From an uncultured Clostridia bacterium (GTDB lineage Bacteria; Bacillota; Clostridia; Christensenellales; UBA1242), in the NCBI GenBank assembly GCA_944332185.1, contig CALVJJ010000003.1, forward strand, positions 18,905 through 82,904: a stretch of 64,000 bases of DNA, read 5' to 3'. This document shows positions 3,432 through 52,068 of the stretch, one piece after another (the stretch's first letter is position 1; the number at the start of each line of letters is the position of its first letter). Below the pieces are notes generated by a model. The model made no database searches. It was not told the DNA's origin and saw only the letters and a program-made list of their open reading frames with translations. Position numbers and translations under genes: made by a program.

Positions 3432-3895
3432 TCAAGTATCTTATTTTATTTGGTATCTTATGTAGTTCTACAAGTATTGGTTGGTATATTCGAAAAATTA
3501 TGATAGAAAGACAAGCCTATTTTGAAGATTTGGTAAAATTTTGTGAAGCATTAAAACAAAATATTGGTAGTAAAAAAGATAAAATAAGTATTTTTGTGAT
3601 GAAATATCAAGATAGTTATCATCAGGCATTTCGTCAAGATATTCAGTCATTTTTTCTAGAACATCATAGTCTACAATTTGAATATTTGCAAGAAAAAGAA
3701 AAAAAAGAAATTATGGACTTTTTTACAAGGTTAGGGAGTTTGCCAATGCATGAAGAAATTGCCAATATTACTTCCTTTGAACTAGTGTTTCAACAAATGG
3801 CATTATCAGCAAAAACAATGTATGAAAAATACGGAAATTTGGTTGTAAAACTAAGTTCCTTAGCGGGGGCTATTATTTGTATTATACTTTTATAA
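3416..3895 (+). CDS. spoIIIAB: Stage III sporulation protein AB
   Basis: 159 aa with N- and C-terminal TM helices, in the second position of the spoIIIA operon. It overlaps the spoIIIAA stop. Confidence 0.8.
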   Translation: MYLCMIKYLILFGILCSSTSIGWYIRKIMIERQAYFEDLVKFCEALKQNIGSKKDKISIFVMKYQDSYHQAFRQDIQSFFLEHHSLQFEYLQEKEKKEIMDFFTRLGSLPMHEEIANITSFELVFQQMALSAKTMYEKYGNLVVKLSSLAGAIICIILL

Positions 3896-5689: not shown

Positions 5690-5698
5690 GAGGTGACT

Positions 5699-6163
5699 AT
5701 GACAGCATGGATATTGAGTATTGTCGGGATTGTTTTTGTGGGTATTATCTTTGATATGATTAGCCCAGAAGGAAAGTTGTCGACATTTATTAAAAGTATA
5801 TTTGCCATTATTACTTTATTTGTTATTGTGAGTCCTATTCCAAAATTATTGCAAAAAAAATGGAATTGGGATTGGAATTTTGAATGGTCAGATGAATATT
5901 TACAATCTGTGACTACGGGTAAAGTACTGTATTATCAAGATCAAATCCGTCAAAATCTTGAAAACATGGGGTATCAACAGGTAGATGTGCTAATAGAATG
6001 GAATCAAGAAAATTCGACACAAAACATGGAAAAAATCTATATAGATTTTACAAAATACGTTCTAAATGGTGGGGACAAGCATAAGATAGAGTATGAGAAG
6101 ATAGAAGAAATGATTGTAAAATTGATCAATATTGAAAAGGAGAATATTATTTTTTATGGTTGA
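5699..6163 (+). CDS. spoIIIAF: Stage III sporulation protein AF
   Basis: ATG at 5699 follows AAGAGGTG. It has two N-terminal TM helices (WILSIVGIVFVGIIFDMISP), as SpoIIIAF does. Confidence 0.75.
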   Translation: MTAWILSIVGIVFVGIIFDMISPEGKLSTFIKSIFAIITLFVIVSPIPKLLQKKWNWDWNFEWSDEYLQSVTTGKVLYYQDQIRQNLENMGYQQVDVLIEWNQENSTQNMEKIYIDFTKYVLNGGDKHKIEYEKIEEMIVKLINIEKENIIFYG

Positions 6164-8177: not shown

Positions 8178-9350
8178 ATGGCTGAAACATACATTTCAAT
8201 ATCACAATTTTCTAACTATATAAAAAATATTTTTGATGCAGAAATTATGCTTCATCATATTTTTTTATATGGAGAGGTAAGTTCCTATAATGTATCCAAT
8301 CATATTGCTTATTTTACCCTTAAGGATCAAGATGCGTTATTAAACTGTGTTATGTTTAATGCATCAGCTTATCCTAAGCCCAATATTGGGGATATGGTAT
8401 TAGTACAAGGAAGTCCTAATTATTACATCAAAGGTGGCAGATTTAGTTTTCAAGTCTCTCATATAGAACCGTATGGGAAAGGAAAATTATATGAAGATTT
8501 TTTACAACTAAAAGAGAAATTGGAAAAATTAGGGTATTTTGACCCAAAACATAAAAAAGCTATTCCTCAAAATATCAAAAGAATTGGTGTTGTCACGAGC
8601 AAAGAAGGTGCTGTGATTCAAGATATTATCAATATCACAACGAGAAGGAATCCTATGATAGATATTGTGTTGTATCCTGTGAAAGTACAAGGAATAGGTG
8701 CCGAACAAGAAATAGCAGAAGGGATTCATTATTTTTCCAATTTTGGTGGAGTAGACTGTGTTGTAGTTGCTAGAGGTGGTGGAAGTGCAGAAGATTTGCA
8801 AGCATATAATACAGAAACGGTTGCACATGCTGTTTATAATTGTACACTACCGATTATCAGTGCAGTAGGTCATGAAACAGATGTGACAATTTGCGATTTT
8901 TGCAGTGATTTAAGAGTTCCAACACCATCAGCTGCAGCAGAAGTTTTAGCATGGGATTGGTATTCTACACATGATACAATTATCGCAATGCAAGATGAAA
9001 TGATAGAAAGTATGACACAAAGAATAACCAATTTGGAAACATCTCTTATGAATGCTATGAAACAAATGACAACAAAAATGAACTATGAAATAGAAAAAAG
9101 TAAAAATGCATTAGTATTATCTTGGCAAAAGCTAGTCAACAACATAGAAAAAAAGATTGATACAAAAGAGCATGGCTTGACAGTTGTCAAAACCCATCTT
9201 GATAATCTAAATCCTACAAAAATGATGAAAAAAGGATATGTAAAACTAGAAAAAGATGGTAAAATTGTAAAAAGTATAAAAGAGACGAGTAAAGGAGATG
9301 TAGTCTCTACTGTCTTCATAGATGGAAAATTGAATATGCGAGTAGAATAA
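8178..9350 (+). CDS. xseA: Exodeoxyribonuclease VII large subunit
   Basis: 390 aa with an N-terminal OB-fold region (ISISQFSNYIKNIFD), the blocks VVVARGGGSAEDL and SAVGHETD, and a coiled-coil tail. Confidence 0.92.
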   Translation: MAETYISISQFSNYIKNIFDAEIMLHHIFLYGEVSSYNVSNHIAYFTLKDQDALLNCVMFNASAYPKPNIGDMVLVQGSPNYYIKGGRFSFQVSHIEPYGKGKLYEDFLQLKEKLEKLGYFDPKHKKAIPQNIKRIGVVTSKEGAVIQDIINITTRRNPMIDIVLYPVKVQGIGAEQEIAEGIHYFSNFGGVDCVVVARGGGSAEDLQAYNTETVAHAVYNCTLPIISAVGHETDVTICDFCSDLRVPTPSAAAEVLAWDWYSTHDTIIAMQDEMIESMTQRITNLETSLMNAMKQMTTKMNYEIEKSKNALVLSWQKLVNNIEKKIDTKEHGLTVVKTHLDNLNPTKMMKKGYVKLEKDGKIVKSIKETSKGDVVSTVFIDGKLNMRVE

Positions 9351-29825: not shown

Positions 29826-31138
29826 TAAATATTGATCAACTAAAGAAAAAGAAAGTGGCATTTATTTCGCTTGGCTGTGATAAAAATCGGGTAGATCTAG
29901 AAAAAATGATTGCCGATATTCAAGCATTTGGATTTTGTATTACTCAAAATCAAGAAGAAGCCAATATTCTAGTTATTAACACTTGTGCATTTTTACAAAC
30001 TGCTAGAGAAGAAAGTATTGATACAATTTTAGAAGCTTTACCTTTAAAAAATGGAAATCTAGAAAAAATTGTTGTAACAGGGTGTTTACCTCAGTACAAA
30101 TTGCAAGAAGTGAAAGAAGCAATTCCAGAGATAGATATTTTATTGACTTTGGACCAAAATGAAAAAATAGTAGATAAAATTGTAGAAAGTTATCAACTAA
30201 AAAATCCTTCCTTTTTATCTATACAAGACCGTGTGGTAACGACACCAAAGCATTATGCATATTTAAAAATTGCAGAAGGTTGTAACAATTTTTGTGCTTA
30301 TTGTACCATTCCATATATTCGTGGAAGATATCAAAGTGAACCAATAGAAAAATTGGTAGCAGAAACAAAAAAACTAGTAAAAAATGGGGCAAGAGAGATT
30401 ATTCTTGTGGCACAAGATGTAACCAAATATGGTCAAGATTTGTACGGTGAGAAAAAATTGGTTACGTTGTTACAAGAATTATCTAAAATTAAAGATTTAA
30501 AATGGATACGTCTGCTTTACTGTTATCCAGAACTAGTAACAGATGAACTTATGAAAGAAATGACTGAAAATCCAAAAATATGTCATTACATTGATCTGCC
30601 ATTACAACACGTCAATGATGAAATTCTAAAGGCAATGAATAGGCACAATACAAAAGCACAATGTGAACTGACTATTCAAAAATTAAGAGAAGCTATACCT
30701 GATATTGCAATTAGAACAACATTTATTATTGGGTTGCCAGGAGAAAATAATAAAAAATTCCAGGAATTGATGGAATTTGTACGCAATCAAAAATTAGATA
30801 ATGTAGGCTTTTTTGCCTATAGTAGAGAAGAAGGAACAAGAGCATATAGTATGAAAAAACAAGTATGGTCTTGGATAAAACAAAAAAGACTAAAAAAGAT
30901 TAGTCTACTTCAAGAAATGATTGCTTATGATCATAACGAAGCTTCTATTGGTAAAACTATGGAAGTAGTTGTAGATGATATTGTAGGAGATATGGCTATT
31001 TGTCGAAATGAGCAAATGGCGCCACTTGTTGATGGTGTGATCTATGTTCCAAAATCCACTATGCAAATTGGTCAATTTTATCAAATAAAAATTACAAAAG
31101 TATTTGGATCTTATGATCTAGAAGGAGAATTAGTATGA
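29822..31138 (+). CDS. rimO: Ribosomal protein S12 methylthiotransferase RimO
   Basis: 438 aa with a UPF0004 N-terminal domain, the radical SAM motif CNNFCAYC and a TRAM-like C-terminus. It lies in the ftsK-rimO-pgsA-cinA-recA order typical of Clostridia. Confidence 0.88.
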   Translation: MINIDQLKKKKVAFISLGCDKNRVDLEKMIADIQAFGFCITQNQEEANILVINTCAFLQTAREESIDTILEALPLKNGNLEKIVVTGCLPQYKLQEVKEAIPEIDILLTLDQNEKIVDKIVESYQLKNPSFLSIQDRVVTTPKHYAYLKIAEGCNNFCAYCTIPYIRGRYQSEPIEKLVAETKKLVKNGAREIILVAQDVTKYGQDLYGEKKLVTLLQELSKIKDLKWIRLLYCYPELVTDELMKEMTENPKICHYIDLPLQHVNDEILKAMNRHNTKAQCELTIQKLREAIPDIAIRTTFIIGLPGENNKKFQELMEFVRNQKLDNVGFFAYSREEGTRAYSMKKQVWSWIKQKRLKKISLLQEMIAYDHNEASIGKTMEVVVDDIVGDMAICRNEQMAPLVDGVIYVPKSTMQIGQFYQIKITKVFGSYDLEGELV

Positions 31139-34264: not shown

Positions 34265-36592
34265 TTATTGAAATAGAAAAGATATATCATCTACTGTTGT
34301 TTCTTTTTGTAATAGGGAATCTAATACTTTTTCTTTTTTAGCCGTTTTAATCGTGGTAGGGGAAGAAGTTTTAATAATTTGATCCCCACATTTTACGACG
34401 ATATAATATGTATATTTTTGATTGTAATCTAGCTGGTAATCTACAAAATGTATTGGTTCATTTTTATCTTGATATTTTTCTATGATTTTATCTTCTCCAC
34501 TAGGACTAATACGATGTATTTCATAATCAAAATTTTGAATAGCATCAAAAGTAATATTGGTAGCATGATTTTGATGATTGATAGATAAAGAAGTAAGACA
34601 AGTATGAAGATAATCTTGATCCAAAATAAGATGTTGAGAACTTGCTCCTACTAAGATTTCCTTTGTGTATCTATCAGGCATATAGCTAGGTGCTTTCCAT
34701 AATTGCTGATTGTTGTCATAGGCAACTCTATCAATTTTGACTGATTGTACACTATCTGGAATGGAAAATGGTTCTGGTTTTTCATCTTTATAATGTTCTT
34801 TGAAAGTATCTGCAATCAGTTGTGTGGCCATGGTACCACCATTATTATTGTGTGGCAAGATATATTCTTTTTGATTAGAGTAATTACCATACCATACACC
34901 CATAGTAAGATCACTAGTATATGCAATACTAATTGCATCACTATTGTCATTAGTATGAGGAATAGCAACAGTACCAGTTTTCCCAGCAATATCAAAATCA
35001 AGAGTAGACAGTCTTTTACTAGTACCTGTTTTTACACCTTCGATTAACATATCTGTCATAAGATAAGAGGTATCTTCGGAAAATACTGGAATTGGGGATT
35101 CCTTGTTTTCATAAAGCAAAACGCCAGCACTAGAGCGAATACTACGAATAAAATGACTTTTTGTGTAGTTGCCTTGATTCGTATAGGGAATATATGCATT
35201 GGTCAAATCTTTCAAAGTAACACCTGTGGTGAATCCTCCTAGAGCAATGGCATATCCTTGATCTAGAGCATCAAATGTAATCCCTGTTTTTTCGGCATAA
35301 TTTTTACATTTTTCAATACCTATGCGTTGCATAATTTTGACAGCTGGTACATTTAAGCTTTTTGCCACGCTATATTTTGCTGTCACATATCCGTGTTCTA
35401 CGTTTCCTAAATTGTGAGGAGTGTATCCATCAATGGTAATATTTTCATCTAAAATAAGACTATCAGGTGTGATGATTCCTTCTTCTAATGCTGGAGAATA
35501 GACTAGAATTGGTTTGATTGCACTGCCGGGTTGTCTTTTAAAATTAACGAGATCATAAGTAGATTTTCCAGCATACGCTACAACGCCAGCTGTATGATTA
35601 TCAATGATAATACCAAGACCATCAGCAATATTACCGTAAGTATTTTGAATATCATAGTCTTCACTAGAAATTTTTTCTGCTAAATTTTTTTGTAGGGCAT
35701 CATGATAATAGGTGTAAATTTGATACCCACCAACAGCAATTTCTTTTTCTGTTTTGCCTAAGAGTTGACTTGCTTCTTGTAAAGTGGCACGGTAATATAA
35801 GTTTGCATATTGCTCACTATGTTGATCGGTAGCAAGCGTAACTGTTTCTTGTTTTGCTTGAGTATACTGCTCTTTGGTAATATGTCCATCTTCTAACATT
35901 TCTTGTAACACTACATCTCTTCTTGCAATACTTTCTTCATAATGATACCTTGGAGAATAAGTGGCAGGGGACTTAATCATACCAGCAAGTAGGGCACTTT
36001 CGCTTAGTGTTAAATCTTCCACATCTTTGCCAAAATATGTTTGACTAGCTTTACTAATTCCATAGGAATTTTCTCCAAAATAAATAACATTCAAATACAT
36101 TTCTAAAATTTCATCTTTTGTAAATTGTTCTTCCAATTTTTTAGTCAAAATCATTTCTTTTAACTTTCTATCAATCGTTTTTTCATTGGTTAGATGTGTA
36201 TTCTTAATGAGTTGCTGGCTAATGGTACTTGCTCCTTCTACAAAAGCACCTTGTTTTATATTATTCAGCATGGCTTTGGCGATTCGTTTATAGTTGAGTC
36301 CATGATGCTTATAAAAACTTTTATCTTCTATCGCAATAAAAGCATTTTGTGTCAATTTTGGAATAGAAGATAAAGGGACAATATTTTTATTCGTTGCATT
36401 TAATGGGGCTATTTCTTCATTGTTGGAGTCATACATTTTAATCTGTGAATTCATGTAGATTAAGTTTTCTTTTGAAAAGGTTACAGAGTTTTTCACAGTA
36501 TAAAAATATATCATAAAACTACCAATGGCAAGAATGGTAATTACAGAAAAAATAATAAGTAATATTAAAAATATTTTTTTTGTCTTTTTCAT
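34265..36592 (-). CDS. Class A penicillin-binding protein (PBP1A type) with a C-terminal extra domain
   Basis: 775 aa with a TM anchor, glycosyltransferase motifs (EDKSFYKHHG, GASTISQQL) and transpeptidase motifs SxxK (GSAIKP) and KTGT. About 150 aa of beta-rich tail follow. Confidence 0.9.
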   Translation of the reverse strand: MKKTKKIFLILLIIFSVITILAIGSFMIYFYTVKNSVTFSKENLIYMNSQIKMYDSNNEEIAPLNATNKNIVPLSSIPKLTQNAFIAIEDKSFYKHHGLNYKRIAKAMLNNIKQGAFVEGASTISQQLIKNTHLTNEKTIDRKLKEMILTKKLEEQFTKDEILEMYLNVIYFGENSYGISKASQTYFGKDVEDLTLSESALLAGMIKSPATYSPRYHYEESIARRDVVLQEMLEDGHITKEQYTQAKQETVTLATDQHSEQYANLYYRATLQEASQLLGKTEKEIAVGGYQIYTYYHDALQKNLAEKISSEDYDIQNTYGNIADGLGIIIDNHTAGVVAYAGKSTYDLVNFKRQPGSAIKPILVYSPALEEGIITPDSLILDENITIDGYTPHNLGNVEHGYVTAKYSVAKSLNVPAVKIMQRIGIEKCKNYAEKTGITFDALDQGYAIALGGFTTGVTLKDLTNAYIPYTNQGNYTKSHFIRSIRSSAGVLLYENKESPIPVFSEDTSYLMTDMLIEGVKTGTSKRLSTLDFDIAGKTGTVAIPHTNDNSDAISIAYTSDLTMGVWYGNYSNQKEYILPHNNNGGTMATQLIADTFKEHYKDEKPEPFSIPDSVQSVKIDRVAYDNNQQLWKAPSYMPDRYTKEILVGASSQHLILDQDYLHTCLTSLSINHQNHATNITFDAIQNFDYEIHRISPSGEDKIIEKYQDKNEPIHFVDYQLDYNQKYTYYIVVKCGDQIIKTSSPTTIKTAKKEKVLDSLLQKETTVDDISFLFQ

Positions 36593-45325: not shown

Positions 45326-46027
45326 ATGGAAAATTTAAAATCAATCATTGAGTCTATTTTGTTTGTTTCTGGTGATGGAGTAGAAATTTTTGACATTGCA
45401 GACAAACTGCATATAGAAGAAAAAGAAGTCAATGCCGCTATTGAAGAATTAAAAAAAGACCATGAAAATACTGGAATTCAAGTAATTACCTATAATAAAA
45501 AAGTACAATTATGCTCCAATCCAAATAATGCTTCTTATGTCACAGAAGTTTTGAATCCAATTAAAGAAAAACAAATGACAAAAGCTGTTCTAGAAGTAGC
45601 AGCAATTATTGCATACAAACAACCAATTACGAGATTAGATGTAGAAAATGTGAGAGGTGTTAATTCTGATTATGCTATCTCCATGTTATTAGACAATCAA
45701 ATGATAGAAGTTGTAGGCAGAAAAGATGCAATAGGAAAACCTTTATTGTTTGGAACAACAGACCAATTTTTAAAAAGATTTGGGTTGCAGTCCATCGAAG
45801 ATTTGCCTGATTATGAAGAACTATTGAATCGTATTCAGGTTATTCATCAACCTAAAGATGAAGTTTCTTTGTTTGATTTTGAAAAACCAATGGATATCAA
45901 TCAAATTGAACAAAACGAAGATAAGATAGATGAAGAAGAACAAGTCAAACTTTATCATGAAAAAAAAAAAAAAATACAAGAAATGGAATCTCATTATCAA
46001 CAAGATGATGAAGAAAGCGCTTCTTAA
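45326..46027 (+). CDS. scpB: Segregation and condensation protein B with an acidic C-terminal extension
   Basis: N-terminal IESILFVSGDG and ITRLDVENVRGV motifs. It contains an A15 run at 45960-45974. Confidence 0.85.
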   Translation: MENLKSIIESILFVSGDGVEIFDIADKLHIEEKEVNAAIEELKKDHENTGIQVITYNKKVQLCSNPNNASYVTEVLNPIKEKQMTKAVLEVAAIIAYKQPITRLDVENVRGVNSDYAISMLLDNQMIEVVGRKDAIGKPLLFGTTDQFLKRFGLQSIEDLPDYEELLNRIQVIHQPKDEVSLFDFEKPMDINQIEQNEDKIDEEEQVKLYHEKKKKIQEMESHYQQDDEESAS

Positions 46028-46169: not shown

Positions 46170-46790
46170 TTAAAATTTTCTAACAAGACCAATTACTTTA
46201 CCTAATATTTCAACATGATCTGTATAAATAGGCTGCATAGTGTCATTTTCTGGCTGTAAGCGATACATTCCATTTTCTTTATAGAATCTTTTAATCGTAC
46301 TATATCCATCAATCATAGCGGCTACGATATCACCATTTTCAGCATAAGGGGTTTGTTTTACCACGACTTTATCTCCATCGAATATACCGGCATTGATCAT
46401 ACTTTCTCCGGATACTGTCAACATAAACAATCCTTCTCCATGGAAAAGGTTAGGTGAGACCATAAAATATTCATCATATTGTTCTACTGCCAAAATTGGT
46501 TGTCCAGCAGTGACCACACCAAGCAAAGGAATACGAATATAGGAATCAGCATTTGGCAGGGAAGTAGGGGTAGAGTTTAGTTTATCTACTACTTCGATTG
46601 CTCTATTTTTATTAGGATTTTTCTTAATATATCCATCTTGTTCTAATTTTTGCATATAGTAGGCGATCGTACTAGTGCTACTGACCTTGACTGCATGACA
46701 CATCTCTCTAACTGTAGGTGGATACCCAAAATTGTTCAAGTGCTCTTTAATAAATTGTAATAATTGTTCTTCTTTATTTGTTTTCTTCAT
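46170..46790 (-). CDS. lexA: LexA repressor
   Basis: N-terminal winged helix (GYPPTVREMCHAV..SSTSTI) and an S24 peptidase domain (VSGESMINAGI...VVVKQ). The ATG at 46790 aligns with the Bacillus LexA N-terminus. Confidence 0.9.
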   Translation of the reverse strand: MKKTNKEEQLLQFIKEHLNNFGYPPTVREMCHAVKVSSTSTIAYYMQKLEQDGYIKKNPNKNRAIEVVDKLNSTPTSLPNADSYIRIPLLGVVTAGQPILAVEQYDEYFMVSPNLFHGEGLFMLTVSGESMINAGIFDGDKVVVKQTPYAENGDIVAAMIDGYSTIKRFYKENGMYRLQPENDTMQPIYTDHVEILGKVIGLVRKF

Positions 46791-46819
46791 AGAATTTTTC
46801 CCCATATCTTATTTTTACC

Positions 46820-46858
46820 ATTGTAACAGAATTTGTGACCATTGTCAAACAAATGTTC
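46820..46858 (-). promoter_or_regulatory. lexA promoter with an overlapping LexA box
   Basis: On the minus strand: GAACATTTGTTT (46858-46847) overlaps -35 TTGACA (46848-46843), followed by a 17-bp spacer and -10 TACAAT (46825-46820). Confidence 0.65.
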
Positions 46859-46868
46859 TATATTTTTA

Positions 46869-47918
46869 TTATTTTTCTCTAAGCTTTACTTTGGTAGAAG
46901 CTTGTCTTCGAATGTCATCACTCATAGCAGCATAATGTTTTCTTGTTGTATTCACATCTTTATGTCCCAACACATCTGCCACTACATAAATATCATTGGT
47001 TTCACGATATAGATTTGTACCATAAGTACTTCTTAATTTGTGAGGAGTGATATGTTTTAAAGGAGTAACCAAACTGGCATATTTTTTTACTAAAAGTTCT
47101 ACAGAGCGAACAGACATTCGTTTGTTTTGCAAACTTAAGAATAGGGCATGTTCTTCTTTTGGAATATCTTTCCTATTTAGTCTTTCTTCCATATAAGGTC
47201 GTAAAGCATCAGCTACTTCATCAGAAAAATATAAAACAACACGATTACCACCTTTGCGGGTAATACGAAAGGCATTTTCATTCAAATTGATATCTTCTAC
47301 ATCAAGACCTACACACTCTGATATACGAATACCTGTCCCCAAGAATAAAGATAACATTGCAAAATCTCTAGCTTTAGTATGTTTATGAAAACCTAATTGT
47401 TGTTTTGTCATGCCGTTACCATCTTCACTAGTATTAAGCATTTTGACAACTTCATCTGATTCTAATCTTATAATTTCGCCAAAGTGAATTTTAGGGGTTT
47501 CTAATTTGCTACCAACATTAGAAGATATTTTTTCTTTTTTAAAAAAATACTTCAAAAGTGCTCGAATGCTACTTAATTTTCTAGCTTTTGCTTTTTCTCC
47601 ATTACGATAAGTTCTACCATCTTGTTTGTAAACAGTCAAATAACTTAAAAACATCTCTAAGTGCGTGCTTGTGACTTTATTCAAATCTTCTAGCGTTAGT
47701 TGTCTAATGTCTTTATGGTAAAATTCTTCTGTTTCGTTGACTAAATATTCAAAGAATAGTTTGAGATCTCTTGCATAGCCTAAACGGGTCAAACTAGAAG
47801 TATTTTGTTCAATTCCCATTAAAAATTCTGAACAAAAGAAGGGTAGGGAGAGTCTCAATTCTCTAATTTTTAATATGTTTTCTTCATCTCTCTGTGTAAA
47901 ATAATCAATGTTTGCCAT
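46869..47918 (-). CDS. Tyrosine recombinase, Xer-like with an extended N-terminal domain (XerS-sized)
   Basis: 349 aa from the ATG at 47918 (the ORF opens with TTG at 47930). Catalytic residues sit in TGIRISEC (R), HKLRSTYGT (HxxR) and LGHKDVNTTRKHY (H, Y). Confidence 0.85.
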   Translation of the reverse strand: MANIDYFTQRDEENILKIRELRLSLPFFCSEFLMGIEQNTSSLTRLGYARDLKLFFEYLVNETEEFYHKDIRQLTLEDLNKVTSTHLEMFLSYLTVYKQDGRTYRNGEKAKARKLSSIRALLKYFFKKEKISSNVGSKLETPKIHFGEIIRLESDEVVKMLNTSEDGNGMTKQQLGFHKHTKARDFAMLSLFLGTGIRISECVGLDVEDINLNENAFRITRKGGNRVVLYFSDEVADALRPYMEERLNRKDIPKEEHALFLSLQNKRMSVRSVELLVKKYASLVTPLKHITPHKLRSTYGTNLYRETNDIYVVADVLGHKDVNTTRKHYAAMSDDIRRQASTKVKLREK

Positions 47919-47959
47919 GTTTTCACCCAAATATCTTATTTTATTTTTCTATTCCTAGT

Positions 47960-47987
47960 ATATCACGAACATAACTATTCGCAAAAT
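47960..47987. repeat. Imperfect inverted repeat (10-8-10) in the recombinase promoter region
   Basis: ATATCACGAA-CATAACTA-TTCGCAAAAT, with arms 7/10 symmetric and the inner CGAA/TTCG perfect. Positions 47973-47986 (AACTATTCGCAAAA) are identical to an arm of the 49240-49275 palindrome. A candidate -35 TTGCGA / -10 TATACT on the minus strand overlaps it. Confidence 0.5.
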
Positions 47988-48096
47988 GTTTTATAATATT
48001 TTTTTTATTATGATAAATAATATACAAAAGGTTAGAGTTTTTGATATAATAACAATAGAATATATTGGATCAGAATAAGGAAATAGGAGAAAACAA

Positions 48097-48996
48097 ATGT
48101 TACTTGATAAACTATTAGAAATACTGCAACCAGTAGGATATCAAACAATTATTCAAAATATAAAAAAGATTGTGAAAAGTGCGATAGAAGACTTTATTCA
48201 AGACAAACCAATGTTTTCTATAGAAGATTTTACTATTTATGAATATGATGATTATTTGATGAATACGAATATCACCAATCAAAATGTATATAGAATATTT
48301 GTAAGAATAAATCAAAACAATAATATCAAACAAAATGTTGCTAGCACTTTAATTACGCAATCAGGTGAGGTCAAACAAATTAAAAATAAAGTGCCAGAAT
48401 TATTCATGGGATTGCAAAAAATAAAAAAAGCACTGCTGGAACAATTAAGATATTATTTTGATGAAACAACTATTTTCGAAGAACAAAAATATGGTATCAA
48501 AATACAAGGCAAAGACATACTAGAAGATGGTATTATACAACCATACTATATTATGATTATTCCTTGTATAGAGTATCACGAAAAAGATCATGCAGGAATT
48601 ATGTATTATGATGACTCCAAAATTGATGTTCAAATAGAATATCATGAGGATTGTTTAAAAAATTTTATTGATAAATATCAAGCAACGAATGGTTTGTTCT
48701 ATCAATACATTATTTTATTGAAACATGTTTTTAATATCACTGAAAAAGAAAGAATGTTACCTTATGAAATATTTGAAACGCTTTTGTATAATGTACCAAA
48801 TGAATGTTATATAGATTTATCAAAAGATACAGCTTTAAAAATTATTCATTATTTAAGTCATTGCGATCTAGGAAAGATGACAGGGTTAGATGGATTAGAT
48901 TATGTCTTTACTTCAAAATATAGATCAATGTCTTATCTATATGCAAAAAAAGTTATTAAGACCATAGGGGAAAATCTTAAAATGTTGAATTTTTAA
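48097..48996 (+). CDS. Hypothetical 299-aa protein, possibly a nucleotidyltransferase-fold protein with a degenerate active site
   Basis: TAGGAGAA SD. The C-terminal half (IMIIPC...EYHEDCLKNFIDKYQATNGLFYQYIILLKHVF...LPYEIFETLLYNVP) resembles the core and helical region of minimal NTases, but no GS...DxD motif is visible. Confidence 0.55.
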   Translation: MLLDKLLEILQPVGYQTIIQNIKKIVKSAIEDFIQDKPMFSIEDFTIYEYDDYLMNTNITNQNVYRIFVRINQNNNIKQNVASTLITQSGEVKQIKNKVPELFMGLQKIKKALLEQLRYYFDETTIFEEQKYGIKIQGKDILEDGIIQPYYIMIIPCIEYHEKDHAGIMYYDDSKIDVQIEYHEDCLKNFIDKYQATNGLFYQYIILLKHVFNITEKERMLPYEIFETLLYNVPNECYIDLSKDTALKIIHYLSHCDLGKMTGLDGLDYVFTSKYRSMSYLYAKKVIKTIGENLKMLNF

Positions 48997-49025
48997 AAAG
49001 CCTTTCATTTAAGATGATGAAAGAA

Positions 49026-49131
49026 TACTATGCAAAGTATATGTGTAGAGTATATAGATAAAAAACAGCCAATCGGGGCTGTTTTTTTATGATATAGTAC
49101 TACTATGCAAATTCGAATAGTACTATGCAAA
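49026..49131 (+). repeat. Three direct copies of TACTATGCAAA
   Basis: Copies at 49026-49036, 49101-49111 and 49121-49131. The last two are 20 bp apart, each preceded by ATAGTAC. The related AGTACTATGCAA also occurs at 43794-43805. Confidence 0.7.
49060..49088. terminator. Bidirectional intrinsic terminator downstream of ORF 48097-48996
   Basis: Stem ACAGCC / GGCTGT with a 6-nt loop, flanked by an A-run and a T-run. Confidence 0.85.
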
Positions 49132-49239
49132 AAATAAATGAAAAAATAAGAATAAGGAATCATATCATCATGATAGAAGTTTTTGAAGCAAAAATAGATT
49201 GAAGAAAATCAAAATGTCTATATTGCTGATTTTTATGGT

Positions 49240-49275
49240 AAACTATTCGTAAAACTTGCCTTTTGCGAATAGTTT
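49240..49275. repeat. Near-perfect 15-6-15 palindrome (candidate recombinase core / dif-like site)
   Basis: AAACTATTCGTAAAA-CTTGCC-TTTTGCGAATAGTTT, with one T/C asymmetry. No T-run follows on either strand. It lies in a convergent intergenic gap. Confidence 0.55.
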
Positions 49276-49360
49276 AAGAAAGCTCTTATGCCTCATTTTT
49301 CCCACTCTCCCCTTAAATTTTTTCATATTATAAAAAAAAGAAGCTTTTTTTTATCTTACT

Positions 49361-50032
49361 TTATATTGATAAAAGATAGCTGTATTCTTTTAATTTTTTT
49401 CTCTGTATCGCCCACCCTGGCATTACACTTTCTATAACTTGATAAAATTTTTTAGAATGATTGAATTCTAATAAATGAGCTAATTCATGGATTACAATAT
49501 AATCTATTATTTTTGGAGGGAGCATAGAAAGTTTGTAATTAAAACTTATCTTCCCTTCACTACTACAAGTCCCCCACCTATTGATAGATTTCATAATTTT
49601 TAAAGATTGATAATCTAGGGACATTAAATTGCTAAAAAATTCTATTCTTTGTTTTGTAATATATGCAGTCTGTTGTTCTATCCAATGTTTTAAAAAAATT
49701 TTTCTTTCTTCCTTACTTTCAATATATGGAATATAGATATACTTATCAGTAATTTCTGGAGATTGATTCTTTTGTATGGATATTACTTCATGGGGCTGAC
49801 CTAAAAATAAAATAGAATCCATTGTGATAATAGATTGATTTTCAGTTTTTGTTTTTAAGACTTCTGTTTGTTTTTTTATGATCCATTTTTCTTTTTCTTG
49901 AATAAAATTTTCTATATATTCCATAGATACCCTTTTAGGAGCATGAACAACAAGAGAACCATCTTTCGTAATTAAAAGAGACAAAGTTTTACGGTTGGTA
50001 CGAACAATCTTATTTGGCGTAATCATATTCAC
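49361..50032 (-). CDS. DUF45 / YgjP-like (M48-related) zinc metallopeptidase
   Basis: 223 aa with a GGTGA SD. It has the HExxH motif in VIHELAHLLEFNHSKKFY and the WGTCS block typical of the family. Confidence 0.85.
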   Translation of the reverse strand: MNMITPNKIVRTNRKTLSLLITKDGSLVVHAPKRVSMEYIENFIQEKEKWIIKKQTEVLKTKTENQSIITMDSILFLGQPHEVISIQKNQSPEITDKYIYIPYIESKEERKIFLKHWIEQQTAYITKQRIEFFSNLMSLDYQSLKIMKSINRWGTCSSEGKISFNYKLSMLPPKIIDYIVIHELAHLLEFNHSKKFYQVIESVMPGWAIQRKKLKEYSYLLSI

Positions 50033-50277
50033 CTCGTTTATGGTATTGTATCAAAAAATAGAAATCATAGCAAAGAAAATAAAATGACTCCCCTGCAAAA
50101 TTTGTCCAAATCTGTAAATCTTATGATTTTGGTGTGGAATACCAATAAAAGGTAAGAGGAAGAAATTCCCCTTTTATATTGAAACGATTGACTTTTATGA
50201 TAGAATTATATAGTATAATAATAACGATAGAAGTAGAAAGATCTATTCTTTACTGGAACTATGTTAGGAGGTGTTTA

Positions 50278-52068
50278 ATGCCTGCAAGACACAAAAGACC
50301 ATTGGCCAGAGGTTTTGTAAATAATAAAATTTTAGAAAGCCTGTTAGATGGAGATAAGTATGGGTATGAGATAATCAAAGAAGTCAAAGAAAAAAGTGGT
50401 GGTAAAATTGAACTAAAACAACCTAGTCTTTACAGTAGTCTAAAAAGGTTCGAACAAAAAGGACTGATCTCTTCTTATTGGGGAGATAGTGATATTGGAG
50501 GAAGAAGACATTATTACTCTATCACTGAAGTTGGTAAAAATTATTATTATACTGCAAATGATCGCGATGACTTTGATACCGTATTAGAAAAAGAAAATGA
50601 AGATGTAGATATTGAGGAAGATCAATTACGTATACCTTCCCCTACCCTCGAACATAGCGATGTCTATGATGAGGTGCATGGTTCTTTTGAAATAGATCAA
50701 CCAAATGATCACGATGATGATATACACACAGATCAGGTACAAGAACAAGATTTGACAAAACAAAACCAATTCTTAACTGATGATATTTTGGAAAAAATGA
50801 AACAACAATATCAAGTAGAAGATCATGTTGATACCATGGAAGAGAAAGAAAAACCAATATTTTCCTTTCAAAGTACTGAAGACAATGATCAACATCTTCA
50901 ACAAAATTTATTTAGTACAACAATGAGTGATGCTATTACCAACGATGAAGTTGTTCCAAACTTTGAAAAAATACAAGAATTAAAAGATATGACTCCTACC
51001 AAAGAGCCTACTAAAGAAAAACCTAAAAAAGAAATTCCTTTGTATCAAGAAAAACCAATGCAATATCATGATTGGGAAGATATGAAAAAACAAGCGACAA
51101 TGAAAAAATCATTTGATATGAATGATGAATCTATTGTGTCTGATAGTACAAAGGAAATGTTTAACCAAAAGATATTCCTAGATCAAGATGAAAGAATTGA
51201 TGTTGGAGACAATGTCAATATGTCTTTAAATCATAAAAAATTAGATGAAAAAAGATATTATTTTACTAAAGATGATAGCTCTATTACACCAAAACCATCT
51301 TATGAAGAAGAAAAGAAAAACCAACAAGAAGATATTGATTATAGAAGCATTTTGGGTGAATTAGTGAATTCCACTGATCCAAAACAAAAAGAACATGCTT
51401 ATATGGTACAAGAAGAATTACTTGGCAAAATGAAGCAGATGAATCAAAAATATATAAAAAATTTTGAAGAAGAAAAAGATACTACGACACAAATTGCTGA
51501 TGCTGATGAATATAAGGTGTCTAATGTACAAATATCTCAAAATGAGCATACTTCTATCTTGCCTTCTATCAAAGATATGGGCATTCAATATTATGAGCCT
51601 GTGTTAAAAGACGCTAAAGATAGAAATTTTGTAAAAATCAATAAAGTCAATATGATTACTTCTTTTATACTAGCACCTATTATTTTATTACAAATGCTAA
51701 TCATTCTACTTGTGCAATATTACTGCCCTACCCTACTTATTGATGGACAATTACCAATGATTGCTGGTGCACTTTATATCATCGTAGCTTCTGCTGCTGT
51801 ACTGATACCTATCTTCTTTACGATTGTATACTTTATGAATCCTAATAAGAAAAAGAAACGACTCTATTTGACAAAGAATTTCATTTGGAACGGTATGATT
51901 GCGTTCTTTGCAGTCTTACTTTTAATTCTTACTCTTAATATGTTGTTTGGTTGTCGAGTGTATAATTGGAAAAATTATTTTGCCCAACTTTTTATTCCAG
52001 CAATATTGGCTACGAACTTTATCATTTATCCTATTGTCAAAGGTTGGATGATTCAAAAGATAAAATAA
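50278..52068 (+). CDS. Membrane-anchored PadR-family transcriptional regulator
   Basis: The ATG at 50278 follows TAGGAGGTG. It has an N-terminal PadR winged helix (ILESLLDGDKYGYEIIKEV...PSLYSSLKRFEQKGLISSYW...RRHYYSITEVG), about 370 aa of acidic low-complexity linker, and 4 predicted C-terminal TM helices. Confidence 0.8.
   Translation: MPARHKRPLARGFVNNKILESLLDGDKYGYEIIKEVKEKSGGKIELKQPSLYSSLKRFEQKGLISSYWGDSDIGGRRHYYSITEVGKNYYYTANDRDDFDTVLEKENEDVDIEEDQLRIPSPTLEHSDVYDEVHGSFEIDQPNDHDDDIHTDQVQEQDLTKQNQFLTDDILEKMKQQYQVEDHVDTMEEKEKPIFSFQSTEDNDQHLQQNLFSTTMSDAITNDEVVPNFEKIQELKDMTPTKEPTKEKPKKEIPLYQEKPMQYHDWEDMKKQATMKKSFDMNDESIVSDSTKEMFNQKIFLDQDERIDVGDNVNMSLNHKKLDEKRYYFTKDDSSITPKPSYEEEKKNQQEDIDYRSILGELVNSTDPKQKEHAYMVQEELLGKMKQMNQKYIKNFEEEKDTTTQIADADEYKVSNVQISQNEHTSILPSIKDMGIQYYEPVLKDAKDRNFVKINKVNMITSFILAPIILLQMLIILLVQYYCPTLLIDGQLPMIAGALYIIVASAAVLIPIFFTIVYFMNPNKKKKRLYLTKNFIWNGMIAFFAVLLLILTLNMLFGCRVYNWKNYFAQLFIPAILATNFIIYPIVKGWMIQKIK

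Follow-up and report, generated by a model that had tools for sequence, protein, structure and literature searches.

A probable XerS/XerH-type Xer/dif module with a single recombinase at the replication terminus of an uncultured Clostridia bacterium

The locus described here lies in a 64-kb stretch of DNA from an uncultured Clostridia bacterium (GenBank assembly GCA_944332185.1, contig CALVJJ010000003.1, positions 18,905 to 82,904 of the forward strand), which as a whole is referred to as the window. It comprises a gene for a XerS-like tyrosine recombinase and, upstream of this gene, a near-perfect palindrome resembling a dif site. The comparison of the window with its relatives makes it very probable that recombinase and palindrome constitute a single-recombinase Xer/dif module for chromosome dimer resolution, of the XerS/XerH type, at the replication terminus. 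A proposal of this kind had been put forward in an earlier note on the same DNA, parts of which are taken up below. The argument depends on the following features, given in window coordinates:

46869-47918, minus strand: XerS-like tyrosine recombinase of 349 amino acids (aa) (Pfam Phage_integrase, NCBIfam)
47957-47984, minus strand: predicted recombinase promoter, with -35 element TTGCGA, a 16-nt spacer and the TG-extended -10 element TATACT (consensus scan)
47973-47986, no strand assigned: lone half-site AACTATTCGCAAAA, an exact arm copy within the recombinase promoter
48965-49314, no strand assigned: interval in which the polar words switch strand, from the last plus-strand word TAGGGGAA at 48965 to the first minus-strand word AAGGGGAG at 49307-49314
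49240-49275, no strand assigned: dif-like palindrome of 36 bp with 15-6-15 architecture, AAACTATTCGTAAAA-CTTGCC-TTTTGCGAATAGTTT

Related loci were obtained from a search for the recombinase family, which yielded at least 8000 candidates at E ≤ 1e-20; the best 120 of these were approximately 349 aa long and 66–100% identical to the window recombinase. A genome scan with the recombinase matched at least 579 loci in species-level genomes, mostly metagenome-assembled genomes (MAGs) labelled Clostridia, Christensenellaceae, Christensenellales, 'Candidatus' Onthoplasma, Scatosoma or Gallimonas. The set of loci compared here (n = 84) was made up of 80 of the scan loci, three closer relatives and the window itself, with stretches of about 13 kb for each related locus and recombinase identities across the related loci ranging from 53% to 100%.

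The palindrome lies in the intergenic gap between two convergent genes, and its arms around CTTGCC differ at a single position. With up to three mismatches allowed, its 12-6-12 core matched once in the 64-kb window and in none of 100 shuffles, and the exact 12-mer half-site occurred three times in the 64 kb, namely in the two arms and at 47975-47986. Among the 84 loci, the form CTATTCG[C/T]AAAA-N6-TTTT[G/A]CGAATAG was present in 61 at no more than two mismatches per arm. Relaxed searches added 8 and then about 5 variants, leading to approximately 74 loci, and in most of those without a palindrome the upstream sequence was too short. Absence of the palindrome from relatives that retain the recombinase had been named beforehand as an outcome that would speak against the proposal, and the conservation observed points the other way. 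No locus carried more than one palindrome, and its position was invariably upstream of the recombinase gene, at a distance of 40 bp to 5.5 kb from the start codon (40–300 bp in 24 loci, 1.3 kb in the window). It accompanied the recombinase gene even in loci that lack the PadR and YgjP genes neighbouring it in the window.

The consensus derived from 60 sites reads AAACTATTCGYAAAA-N6-TTTTRCGAATAGTTT. In most species the two 15-bp arms were identical or differed at one or two positions, with no steady difference between left and right, and the spacer was constant in length (6 bp) and variable in sequence across the 60 sites. In some lineages, changes in one arm were matched in the other, giving CTTTGCGCAAAA...TTTTGCGCAAAG in L044, L060 and L065 and CTATGCGTAAAA...TTTTACGCATAG in L055. 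Such paired changes around a spacer of constant length fit recognition of the site by two molecules of a single protein. Different clades have spacers of the families CACAGC/GACAAG or of their reverse complements GCTGTG/CTTGTC, so that the core site is flipped relative to the recombinase gene from one lineage to another. The properties commonly described for dif sites (a length of about 30 bp, a palindrome built around 6 central bases, an intergenic location, low GC, proximity to the terminus and a single copy; PMC2731167, PMC9765430) were all found here, copy number being counted at the scale of the locus. A role as a terminator or RNA element was rejected, as the terminator scan called no terminator at 49240-49275, in line with the earlier reading of the sequence, and the matches to Rfam were sub-threshold and at chance level. 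The calculated hairpin energy of -16.4 kcal/mol is a value that any palindrome would give. A canonical dif elsewhere in the window was likewise discarded, the best matches to the B. subtilis and E. coli sites having 8/28 mismatches, which is at noise level.

The recombinase gave Pfam matches to Phage_integrase (E 1.7e-34) and to a SAM-like N-terminal domain, and it contains the TRKGG, ITPHKLR and LGH blocks. Residues R198, K222, H293, H319 and Y329 were invariant in 25 homologues, and R296 was kept in at least 90% of them. In a ranking against NCBIfam models, XerS (NF003462) came first with 190.5 bits, followed by XerA (165), XerC (150) and XerD (142), and the alignment to the XerS model ran end to end, from about position 5 to 356 of 360. 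Six diverse relatives showed the same ranking, with XerS on top at 178–200 bits. The window protein and all six relatives nevertheless remained below the XerS equivalog cutoff of 267 bits, and the enzyme is therefore XerS-like rather than XerS by the curated definition. Sequence and fold searches of the PDB returned XerD, XerA and XerH as the nearest structures, with a sequence match to XerH of E 1.2e-7 compared to 2.8e-17 for XerD; the fold search on the predicted model agrees with a general Xer-type similarity only. No other tyrosine recombinase, and no codV/ripX, was found in the 64-kb window. The lone XerS-like recombinase that the earlier note had recognized was supported by the family comparison it had called for, at a score below the cutoff.

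The best true phage relative of the recombinase was 32% identical and the best plasmid relative 38.5%, while two 'phage' matches at 48–52% identity turned out to be host contigs carrying LexA, the recombinase and the palindrome. Judged from these relationships, the recombinase is not a mobile-element integrase. These two records, the GenBank scaffolds MT835555.1 (L099) and MT835478.1 (L100) named 'UNVERIFIED: Bacteriophage sp.', are at least partly bacterial terminus DNA rather than phage.

A further copy of an arm is located in the recombinase promoter. The 14 bases at 47973-47986 reproduce the right arm exactly in its reverse complement, which confirms the shared 14-mer pointed out previously. 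The arrangement recurs in relatives, since 35 of 82 loci have a half-site in the 140 bp upstream of the recombinase start, compared with a background of 0.022 per 140 bp. Usually it takes the form AACTATTCGYAAAA-TTGACA-N17-(TG)nTATAAT, with the half-site touching the -35 hexamer; in the window and its closest relatives the half-site is inverted and the predicted -35 hexamer TTGCGA lies inside it, followed by the TG-extended TATACT. In L028 and L029 the half-site was present although the full palindrome lies only about 100 bp further upstream with no intervening gene, which means that the half-site was not created by the capture of a cassette. The earlier view of 47960-47987 as a hybrid recombination site, with a 10-8-10 layout, had to be given up, as only the arm on the TTCGCAAAA side is kept in relatives and GTGATAT corresponds to an extended -10 element. 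XerS binds one half-site as a monomer, which makes autoregulation a reasonable inference, and by analogy the half-site at 47973-47986 is probably an autoregulatory operator. A LexA box at the recombinase promoter was also considered and rejected, CGAAC-ATAA-CTAT being a misfit to the GAAC-N4-GTTC form.

The position of the palindrome coincides with a switch in chromosome organization. Long open reading frames (ORFs) in the window lie on the plus strand up to 46027, with the exception of 34265-36592, are mixed thereafter and lie on the minus strand from 56279, as had been noticed before. Up to 46 kb the GC skew of the window ranged from +0.04 to +0.30; it was mixed from there to 56 kb and took values of -0.09 to -0.16 beyond. 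When approximately 50–60 loci were aligned on the palindrome and pooled, the GC skew amounted to +0.060 in the 500 bp before the palindrome and -0.029 after it, reaching about -0.1 further out. Pooled third-codon-position skew assigned the YgjP and PadR genes to one replichore and the recombinase and LexA genes to the other.

Oligonucleotides with a strand preference were assessed by ranking 7- and 8-mers according to their orientation toward the palindrome in 59 other loci, with the window held out. The top words were rich in G, namely AGGGGAG (99 copies toward and 5 away), AAGAGGG (96:6) and AGAAGGG (58:7), and the SpoIIIE recognition sequence (SRS) of B. subtilis, GAGAAGGG, was oriented 23:2 toward the palindrome. 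In the held-out window, all 43 ranked words up to 48966 lay on the plus strand and all 25 from 49307 onwards on the minus strand, and the 341-bp switch interval encloses the palindrome. The polarity was independent of gene strand (words at 47837 in the minus-strand recombinase gene and at 50637 and 54900 in plus-strand genes) and ran contrary to the slightly positive local GC skew at 49.3–56 kb. The word AGGGGA was distributed 85:12 between plus and minus strand to the left of the palindrome in the 59 related loci and 11:170 to its right, with the flip at the palindrome. In their distribution these words behave as translocase guides of the type of FtsK orienting polar sequences (KOPS) and SRS, converging on dif, and they would presumably be read by such a translocase. 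With both the pooled skew and the held-out words flipping at the palindrome, the placement of the replication terminus at this locus is supported, and the view of the 15-6-15 palindrome as a dif-type core site gains from this flip as well as from its conservation and from the prophages integrated at it.

[quoted passage not shown] In L058, a perfect site (478-507) is followed, in this order, by a microvirus (about 5.2 kb), a degenerate copy interrupted by one inserted base (5697-5727), another copy whose spacer is 9 nt long (5789-5820), the promoter half-site and the recombinase gene. Among the products of this microvirus are a major head protein (phrog_514, E 8e-126), a protein for replication initiation (phrog_942) and a pilot protein. 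L106 displays LexA, the recombinase, a gene resembling those for cGAS/DncV-like nucleotidyltransferases (CD-NTases), a full site (3570-3598), a second, different microvirus and a degenerate site (8477-8505), beyond which lies a further copy with a 10-nt spacer (8519-8551). In L102, a host gene and degenerate sites (499-531 and 607-637) precede an inovirus-like element, which has genes for a Rep of the rolling-circle type (phrog_3419) and for an assembly ATPase resembling Zot (phrog_197) and is followed by a full site (5957-5986). The related host contig L104 carries the recombinase, the same host gene as L102, the palindrome and then most of the L102 element in the opposite orientation. In the L102 and L106 elements, whose ORFs were listed from end to end, no ORF was of integrase size. 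No relative was near enough to serve as an empty-site comparator for the L058 prophage, the best one showing about 73% DNA identity with homology beginning only at the promoter.

Integrase-less phages situated at dif with one good and one defective copy of the site represent the behaviour of integrative mobile elements exploiting Xer (IMEX), and the same logic led to the discovery of XerL (PMC9765430). With an element at dif flanked by a full and a degenerate site, the three prophages of L058, L106 and L102 are, by their layout, IMEX. The capture of elements by Xer recombination, as previously suggested, thus finds support in these relatives; its application to the window is considered below. 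Besides the degenerate copy with its 6-nt spacer, all three prophages are accompanied by an extra copy with good arms and a spacer of 9–11 nt, which in L102 is the one at 499-531. The recurrence of these copies points to something designed into the phage attachment region and not to decay.

The palindrome was also found in IMG/VR, in 15 contigs exactly and in 21 under relaxed conditions, with contig GC contents of 28–55%; by a rough estimate, this is far above chance for 24 specified bases. Apart from the host-junction contigs L104 and L106, none of the palindrome-bearing phage contigs showed the recombinase or host neighbours.

Further features of the window surround this core:

ending at 46027, plus strand: scpA and scpB (window layout)
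46170-46805, minus strand: lexA (TIGR00498, 204 bits)
48097-48996, plus strand: orphan ORF of 299 aa with a CD-NTase (CdnE-like) fold (PADLOC, AlphaFold, PDB fold search)
49027, 49102 and 49122 (interval 49027-49131), plus strand: three arm-like polar 10-mers, ACTATGCAAA (sequence count)
49361-50032, minus strand: YgjP-like metallopeptidase (Pfam)
50239-52068, plus strand: PadR-domain protein with a long C-terminal extension (Pfam)

The gene order PadR, YgjP, palindrome, recombinase, LexA was found again in many related loci, and lexA is located 3' of the recombinase gene in 58 of 83 loci. In the window, a good SOS box of the Gram-positive type, AGAACATTTGTTTG, on the minus strand at 46846-46859 overlaps the -35 element of the lexA promoter and lies within the 63-bp gap past the recombinase stop codon. 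In L019 (1-6290), the block of PadR, YgjP and palindrome is inverted relative to the recombinase gene, unlike in every other locus, with the palindrome at position 18, YgjP on the minus strand and PadR on the plus strand. The protein encoded at 50239-52068 consists of an N-terminal PadR winged helix, a long acidic region of low complexity and a hydrophobic C-terminal part, which looks membrane-spanning. A membrane-anchored DNA-binding protein encoded beside dif is unusual.

The 10-mer ACTATGCAAA looks like the dif arm ACTAT[TC]GCAAAA with two bases removed. It occurs in the window at 49027-49036, 49102-49111 and 49122-49131, where the copies flank the terminator hairpin of ORF 48097-48996 and are directed at the palindrome, and once more at 31058. 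In the relatives, 45 copies are directed toward the palindrome compared with 7 in the other direction, and clusters of two to three copies are located 80–600 bp from the palindrome on the recombinase side (L001-L008, L081 and L083); in the 620 bp on this side, TTGCATAG was 29-fold enriched. Clusters of the 10-mer were also seen in the PadR-YgjP intergenic region of L003-L008, and the clade with a short gap between palindrome and recombinase gene carries another motif containing TACTATG. Possible roles of the 10-mers include accessory sites, relics of IMEX traffic or the operator of a regulator.

The interval between palindrome and recombinase gene is variable in content. It was empty in approximately 24 loci, held an ORF of about 300 aa of the window type in 22 and serS in about 8, and contained prophages in the cases described above. 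The position of the full-length serS (about 427 aa) is occupied in L027 (5098-5886) and L074 (5107-5892) by ORFs of about 262 aa with only the N-terminal domain of seryl-tRNA synthetase. The window ORF at 48097-48996 matched a PADLOC oligonucleotide cyclase over its full length (E 9.5e-11), and its AlphaFold model (predicted local distance difference test, pLDDT, 88.7) gave CdnE structures as the top PDB matches, with template modelling (TM) scores of 0.67–0.70. Its family comprises 47 proteins (P0121-P0167), adjoining a dif-like site in every locus examined. The family does not keep acidic residues where GS/DxD would be expected (VRINQ in the window compared to YVEINQ in relatives), and the product is consequently probably not an active cyclase. 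A cyclic-oligonucleotide-based antiphage signalling system (CBASS) is expected to combine an active GS...DxD...D CD-NTase with an effector, and no effector gene was found adjoining the ORF.

The 1.25-kb segment containing this ORF had been suspected earlier of being a small element captured by Xer recombination or an invertible segment. The comparison of relatives that had been recommended at the same time does not favour either idea. The ORF family was found at the same position and in the same orientation in 22 loci, whose recombinases are 54–100% identical to that of the window, and no close relative lacked the ORF; alongside recombinases of 89% and 88% identity, the ORF itself is 66% and 54% identical. 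In the window it is bounded by one full site and a half-site, and a second full site, direct or inverted, was absent from the 64 kb, with no orientation polymorphism seen among the loci. By these comparisons the ORF is a conserved, fast-evolving resident neighbour, neither a component of the recombination machinery nor a recent capture.

A model that would account for these observations is as follows. A pair of XerS-like monomers would attach to the near-identical arms of the palindrome at 49240-49275 (36 bp), two such palindromes on a chromosome dimer would synapse, and strand exchange would take place at the borders of the 6-bp spacer, with the single recombinase being sufficient. Coupling to division could be provided by a translocase of the FtsK/SpoIIIE type, steered to the palindrome by the converging AGGGGA-type words, and the promoter half-site would probably let the recombinase regulate its own synthesis. 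Integrase-less ssDNA phages would use the palindrome as an attachment site in the manner of IMEX, and the CD-NTase-like ORF would be a resident neighbour outside the recombination machinery.

Several points weigh against this interpretation, for which the support is comparative throughout. In the window alone, third-position skew levels off after approximately 45 kb with no clear reversal; the window by itself therefore cannot place the switch, and pooling across loci was needed. Judged from the third-position skew of the CD-NTase-like gene in nine loci, the mutational switch may be displaced from the palindrome by about 1 kb, toward the recombinase. Merging of overlapping polar words leaves about 29 and about 15 distinct sites in the window instead of 68, and G-rich words are partly expected to track GC skew. 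The single-copy status of the palindrome covers the 64-kb window and about 13 kb per relative, and confidence in the recombinase model from AlphaFold is low (pLDDT 68), including its catalytic domain. Finally, the IMG/VR contigs L089, L090, L093, L094 and L096 are tailed phages in which the exact palindrome lies between the terminase genes terS and terL or just upstream of terL. The palindrome-bearing tailed-phage contigs are unrelated, have differing TerL families and carry no recombinase gene nearby, and L084, L095 and L097 share the spacer GGATAG with the host locus L002. In these phages, the palindrome could be an integrase-free attachment site or a site for multimer resolution; queries with terL and terS identified no tailed prophages at the palindrome in the host loci.

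A more far-reaching interpretation of the same data, which we consider doubtful, is that of a terminus organiser with layers beyond those described for Xer systems. The half-site would gate the recombinase promoter, arrays of ACTATGCAAA pointing at dif from both sides would be accessory or fork-trap-like sites or IMEX relics, and the terS-terL dif of tailed phages would act as an integrase-free lysogeny switch, with Xer integration splitting the packaging operon in the lysogen. It appears improbable that the palindrome is recombined by a XerC/XerD-like pair with the partner encoded elsewhere in the genome. In favour of such a pair, most Firmicutes outside streptococci and lactococci have two Xer proteins, and the search for recombinases was confined to the 64-kb window. 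Within these 64 kb, however, no second tyrosine recombinase is present, the near-identical arms without a consistent left/right difference contrast with the distinct arms of XerC/XerD sites, and a dif adjacent to the recombinase gene is the reported hallmark of the single-recombinase modules of XerS and XerH. We regard it as highly improbable that palindrome and half-site are purely transcriptional operators, bound by a recombinase-like repressor or a PadR-type protein with no recombination involved. Such a role would suit the half-site in the recombinase promoter of 35 of the 82 loci, and the catalytically dead recombinase-fold repressors MrpR, YopR and SroF were among the fold matches; it is at odds with the conservation of the full catalytic set including the tyrosine, with distances of up to 5.5 kb between palindrome and promoter, across housekeeping genes such as serS, with the site copies flanking prophages, with the flip of skew and polar words and with the persistence of the palindrome without PadR and YgjP.

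Still a little less credible is the idea of a mobile element, domesticated or resident, that happens to be located near the terminus and of which the recombinase is the integrase and the palindrome the attachment site. Integrative elements typically encode a tyrosine recombinase beside its site and the content of the interval between gene and site is variable, yet both flanks are syntenic across species with recombinases 53–100% identical, each locus has one full site, phages and plasmids lack close relatives of the recombinase, and the position is where skew and polar words switch in the pooled loci, and where the polar words switch in the window as well. There appears to be next to no chance that the 1.25-kb segment with ORF 48097-48996 can be excised or inverted as a cassette, with a good site at one end and a hybrid site at the other. 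The exact 14-mer common to 47973-47986 and the palindrome arm had given rise to this idea, but the element proximal to the recombinase is only a half-site that also occurs without an intervening gene in L028 and L029, the position and orientation of the ORF are the same in 22 loci, including relatives with 88–89% identical recombinases, and a second full site, inverted or direct, is lacking. A single-recombinase Xer/dif module at the terminus, with the ORF as a bystander, thus remains the preferred reading of the locus.

If this reading is correct, it would apply to a large lineage, with at least 579 species-level genomes, many of them from abundant, uncultured gut bacteria. When these MAGs are assembled and oriented, the palindrome would serve as a precise terminus marker and the polar words as a candidate KOPS motif. 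The module would further explain how integrase-less microviruses and inoviruses lysogenize gut Clostridia, and would offer a compact pair of recombinase and near-perfect palindrome for studying the order of strand exchange in a homomeric Xer enzyme.

The literature consulted presents XerS, XerH and XerL in bacteria and XerA in archaea, and no others, as single-recombinase systems for chromosome dimer resolution. XerS of streptococci and lactococci, a protein of 356 aa, makes up one module with its site, which is found at the GC-skew switch and upstream of the gene; this site, difSL, spans 31 bp, and its repeats, imperfect and unequal in length, are bound asymmetrically by XerS (PMC1914069; PMC2965235). 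The present system shares with XerS/difSL a single recombinase of about 350 aa, the best end-to-end model match and a Firmicute host, and the palindrome is likewise situated at the skew switch and upstream of the gene wherever it was found. It differs in the scores of 178–200 bits compared to the cutoff of 267, in the near-perfect palindrome with arms of 12–15 bp, which is set apart from difSL as described, in the separate promoter half-site, in the possibility of intervening genes and in the hosts, which are Clostridia of the Christensenellales type.

XerH, known from Helicobacter and Campylobacter, is a single recombinase of 354–362 aa, usually with difH linked to its gene (PMC2731167; PMC5241119). 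The 6-bp spacer and arms ending in A-tracts are common to difH, TATTGAAAA-CTATAA-TTTTCAAATA, and the site found here, TATTCGCAAAA-N6-TTTTGCGAATA, both having the layout TATT..AAAA-N6-TTTT..AATA. In contrast, XerH matches the window recombinase weakly, the arms are two bases longer here (a CG insert) and more symmetric, and the hosts belong to another phylum. XerL of the Legionellales is a distinct, divergent clade, and xerL is located more than 400 kb from dif in L. pneumophila (PMC9765430). It resembles the present case in its single recombinase, its long uninterrupted inverted repeats and the way in which the site was revealed by integrase-less elements with a dif mimic (PMC9765430), while gene and site are adjacent here; this comparison is with XerL as described.

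Known IMEX include filamentous phages of the CTX type and microvirus prophages at dif (PMC5357621), such as the microviruses of Bacteroidetes (PMC3091885). The elements of L058, L106 and L102 agree with these in being ssDNA phages at a dif-type site with one good and one degenerate copy, and differ in their Clostridia hosts, the XerS-like enzyme and the odd copies with 9–11 nt spacers, whereas the window itself is free of such an element. Literature searches returned no description of a single-recombinase Xer/dif system in Clostridia of the Christensenellales type, and the module appears to be an undescribed relative of the XerS and XerH systems.

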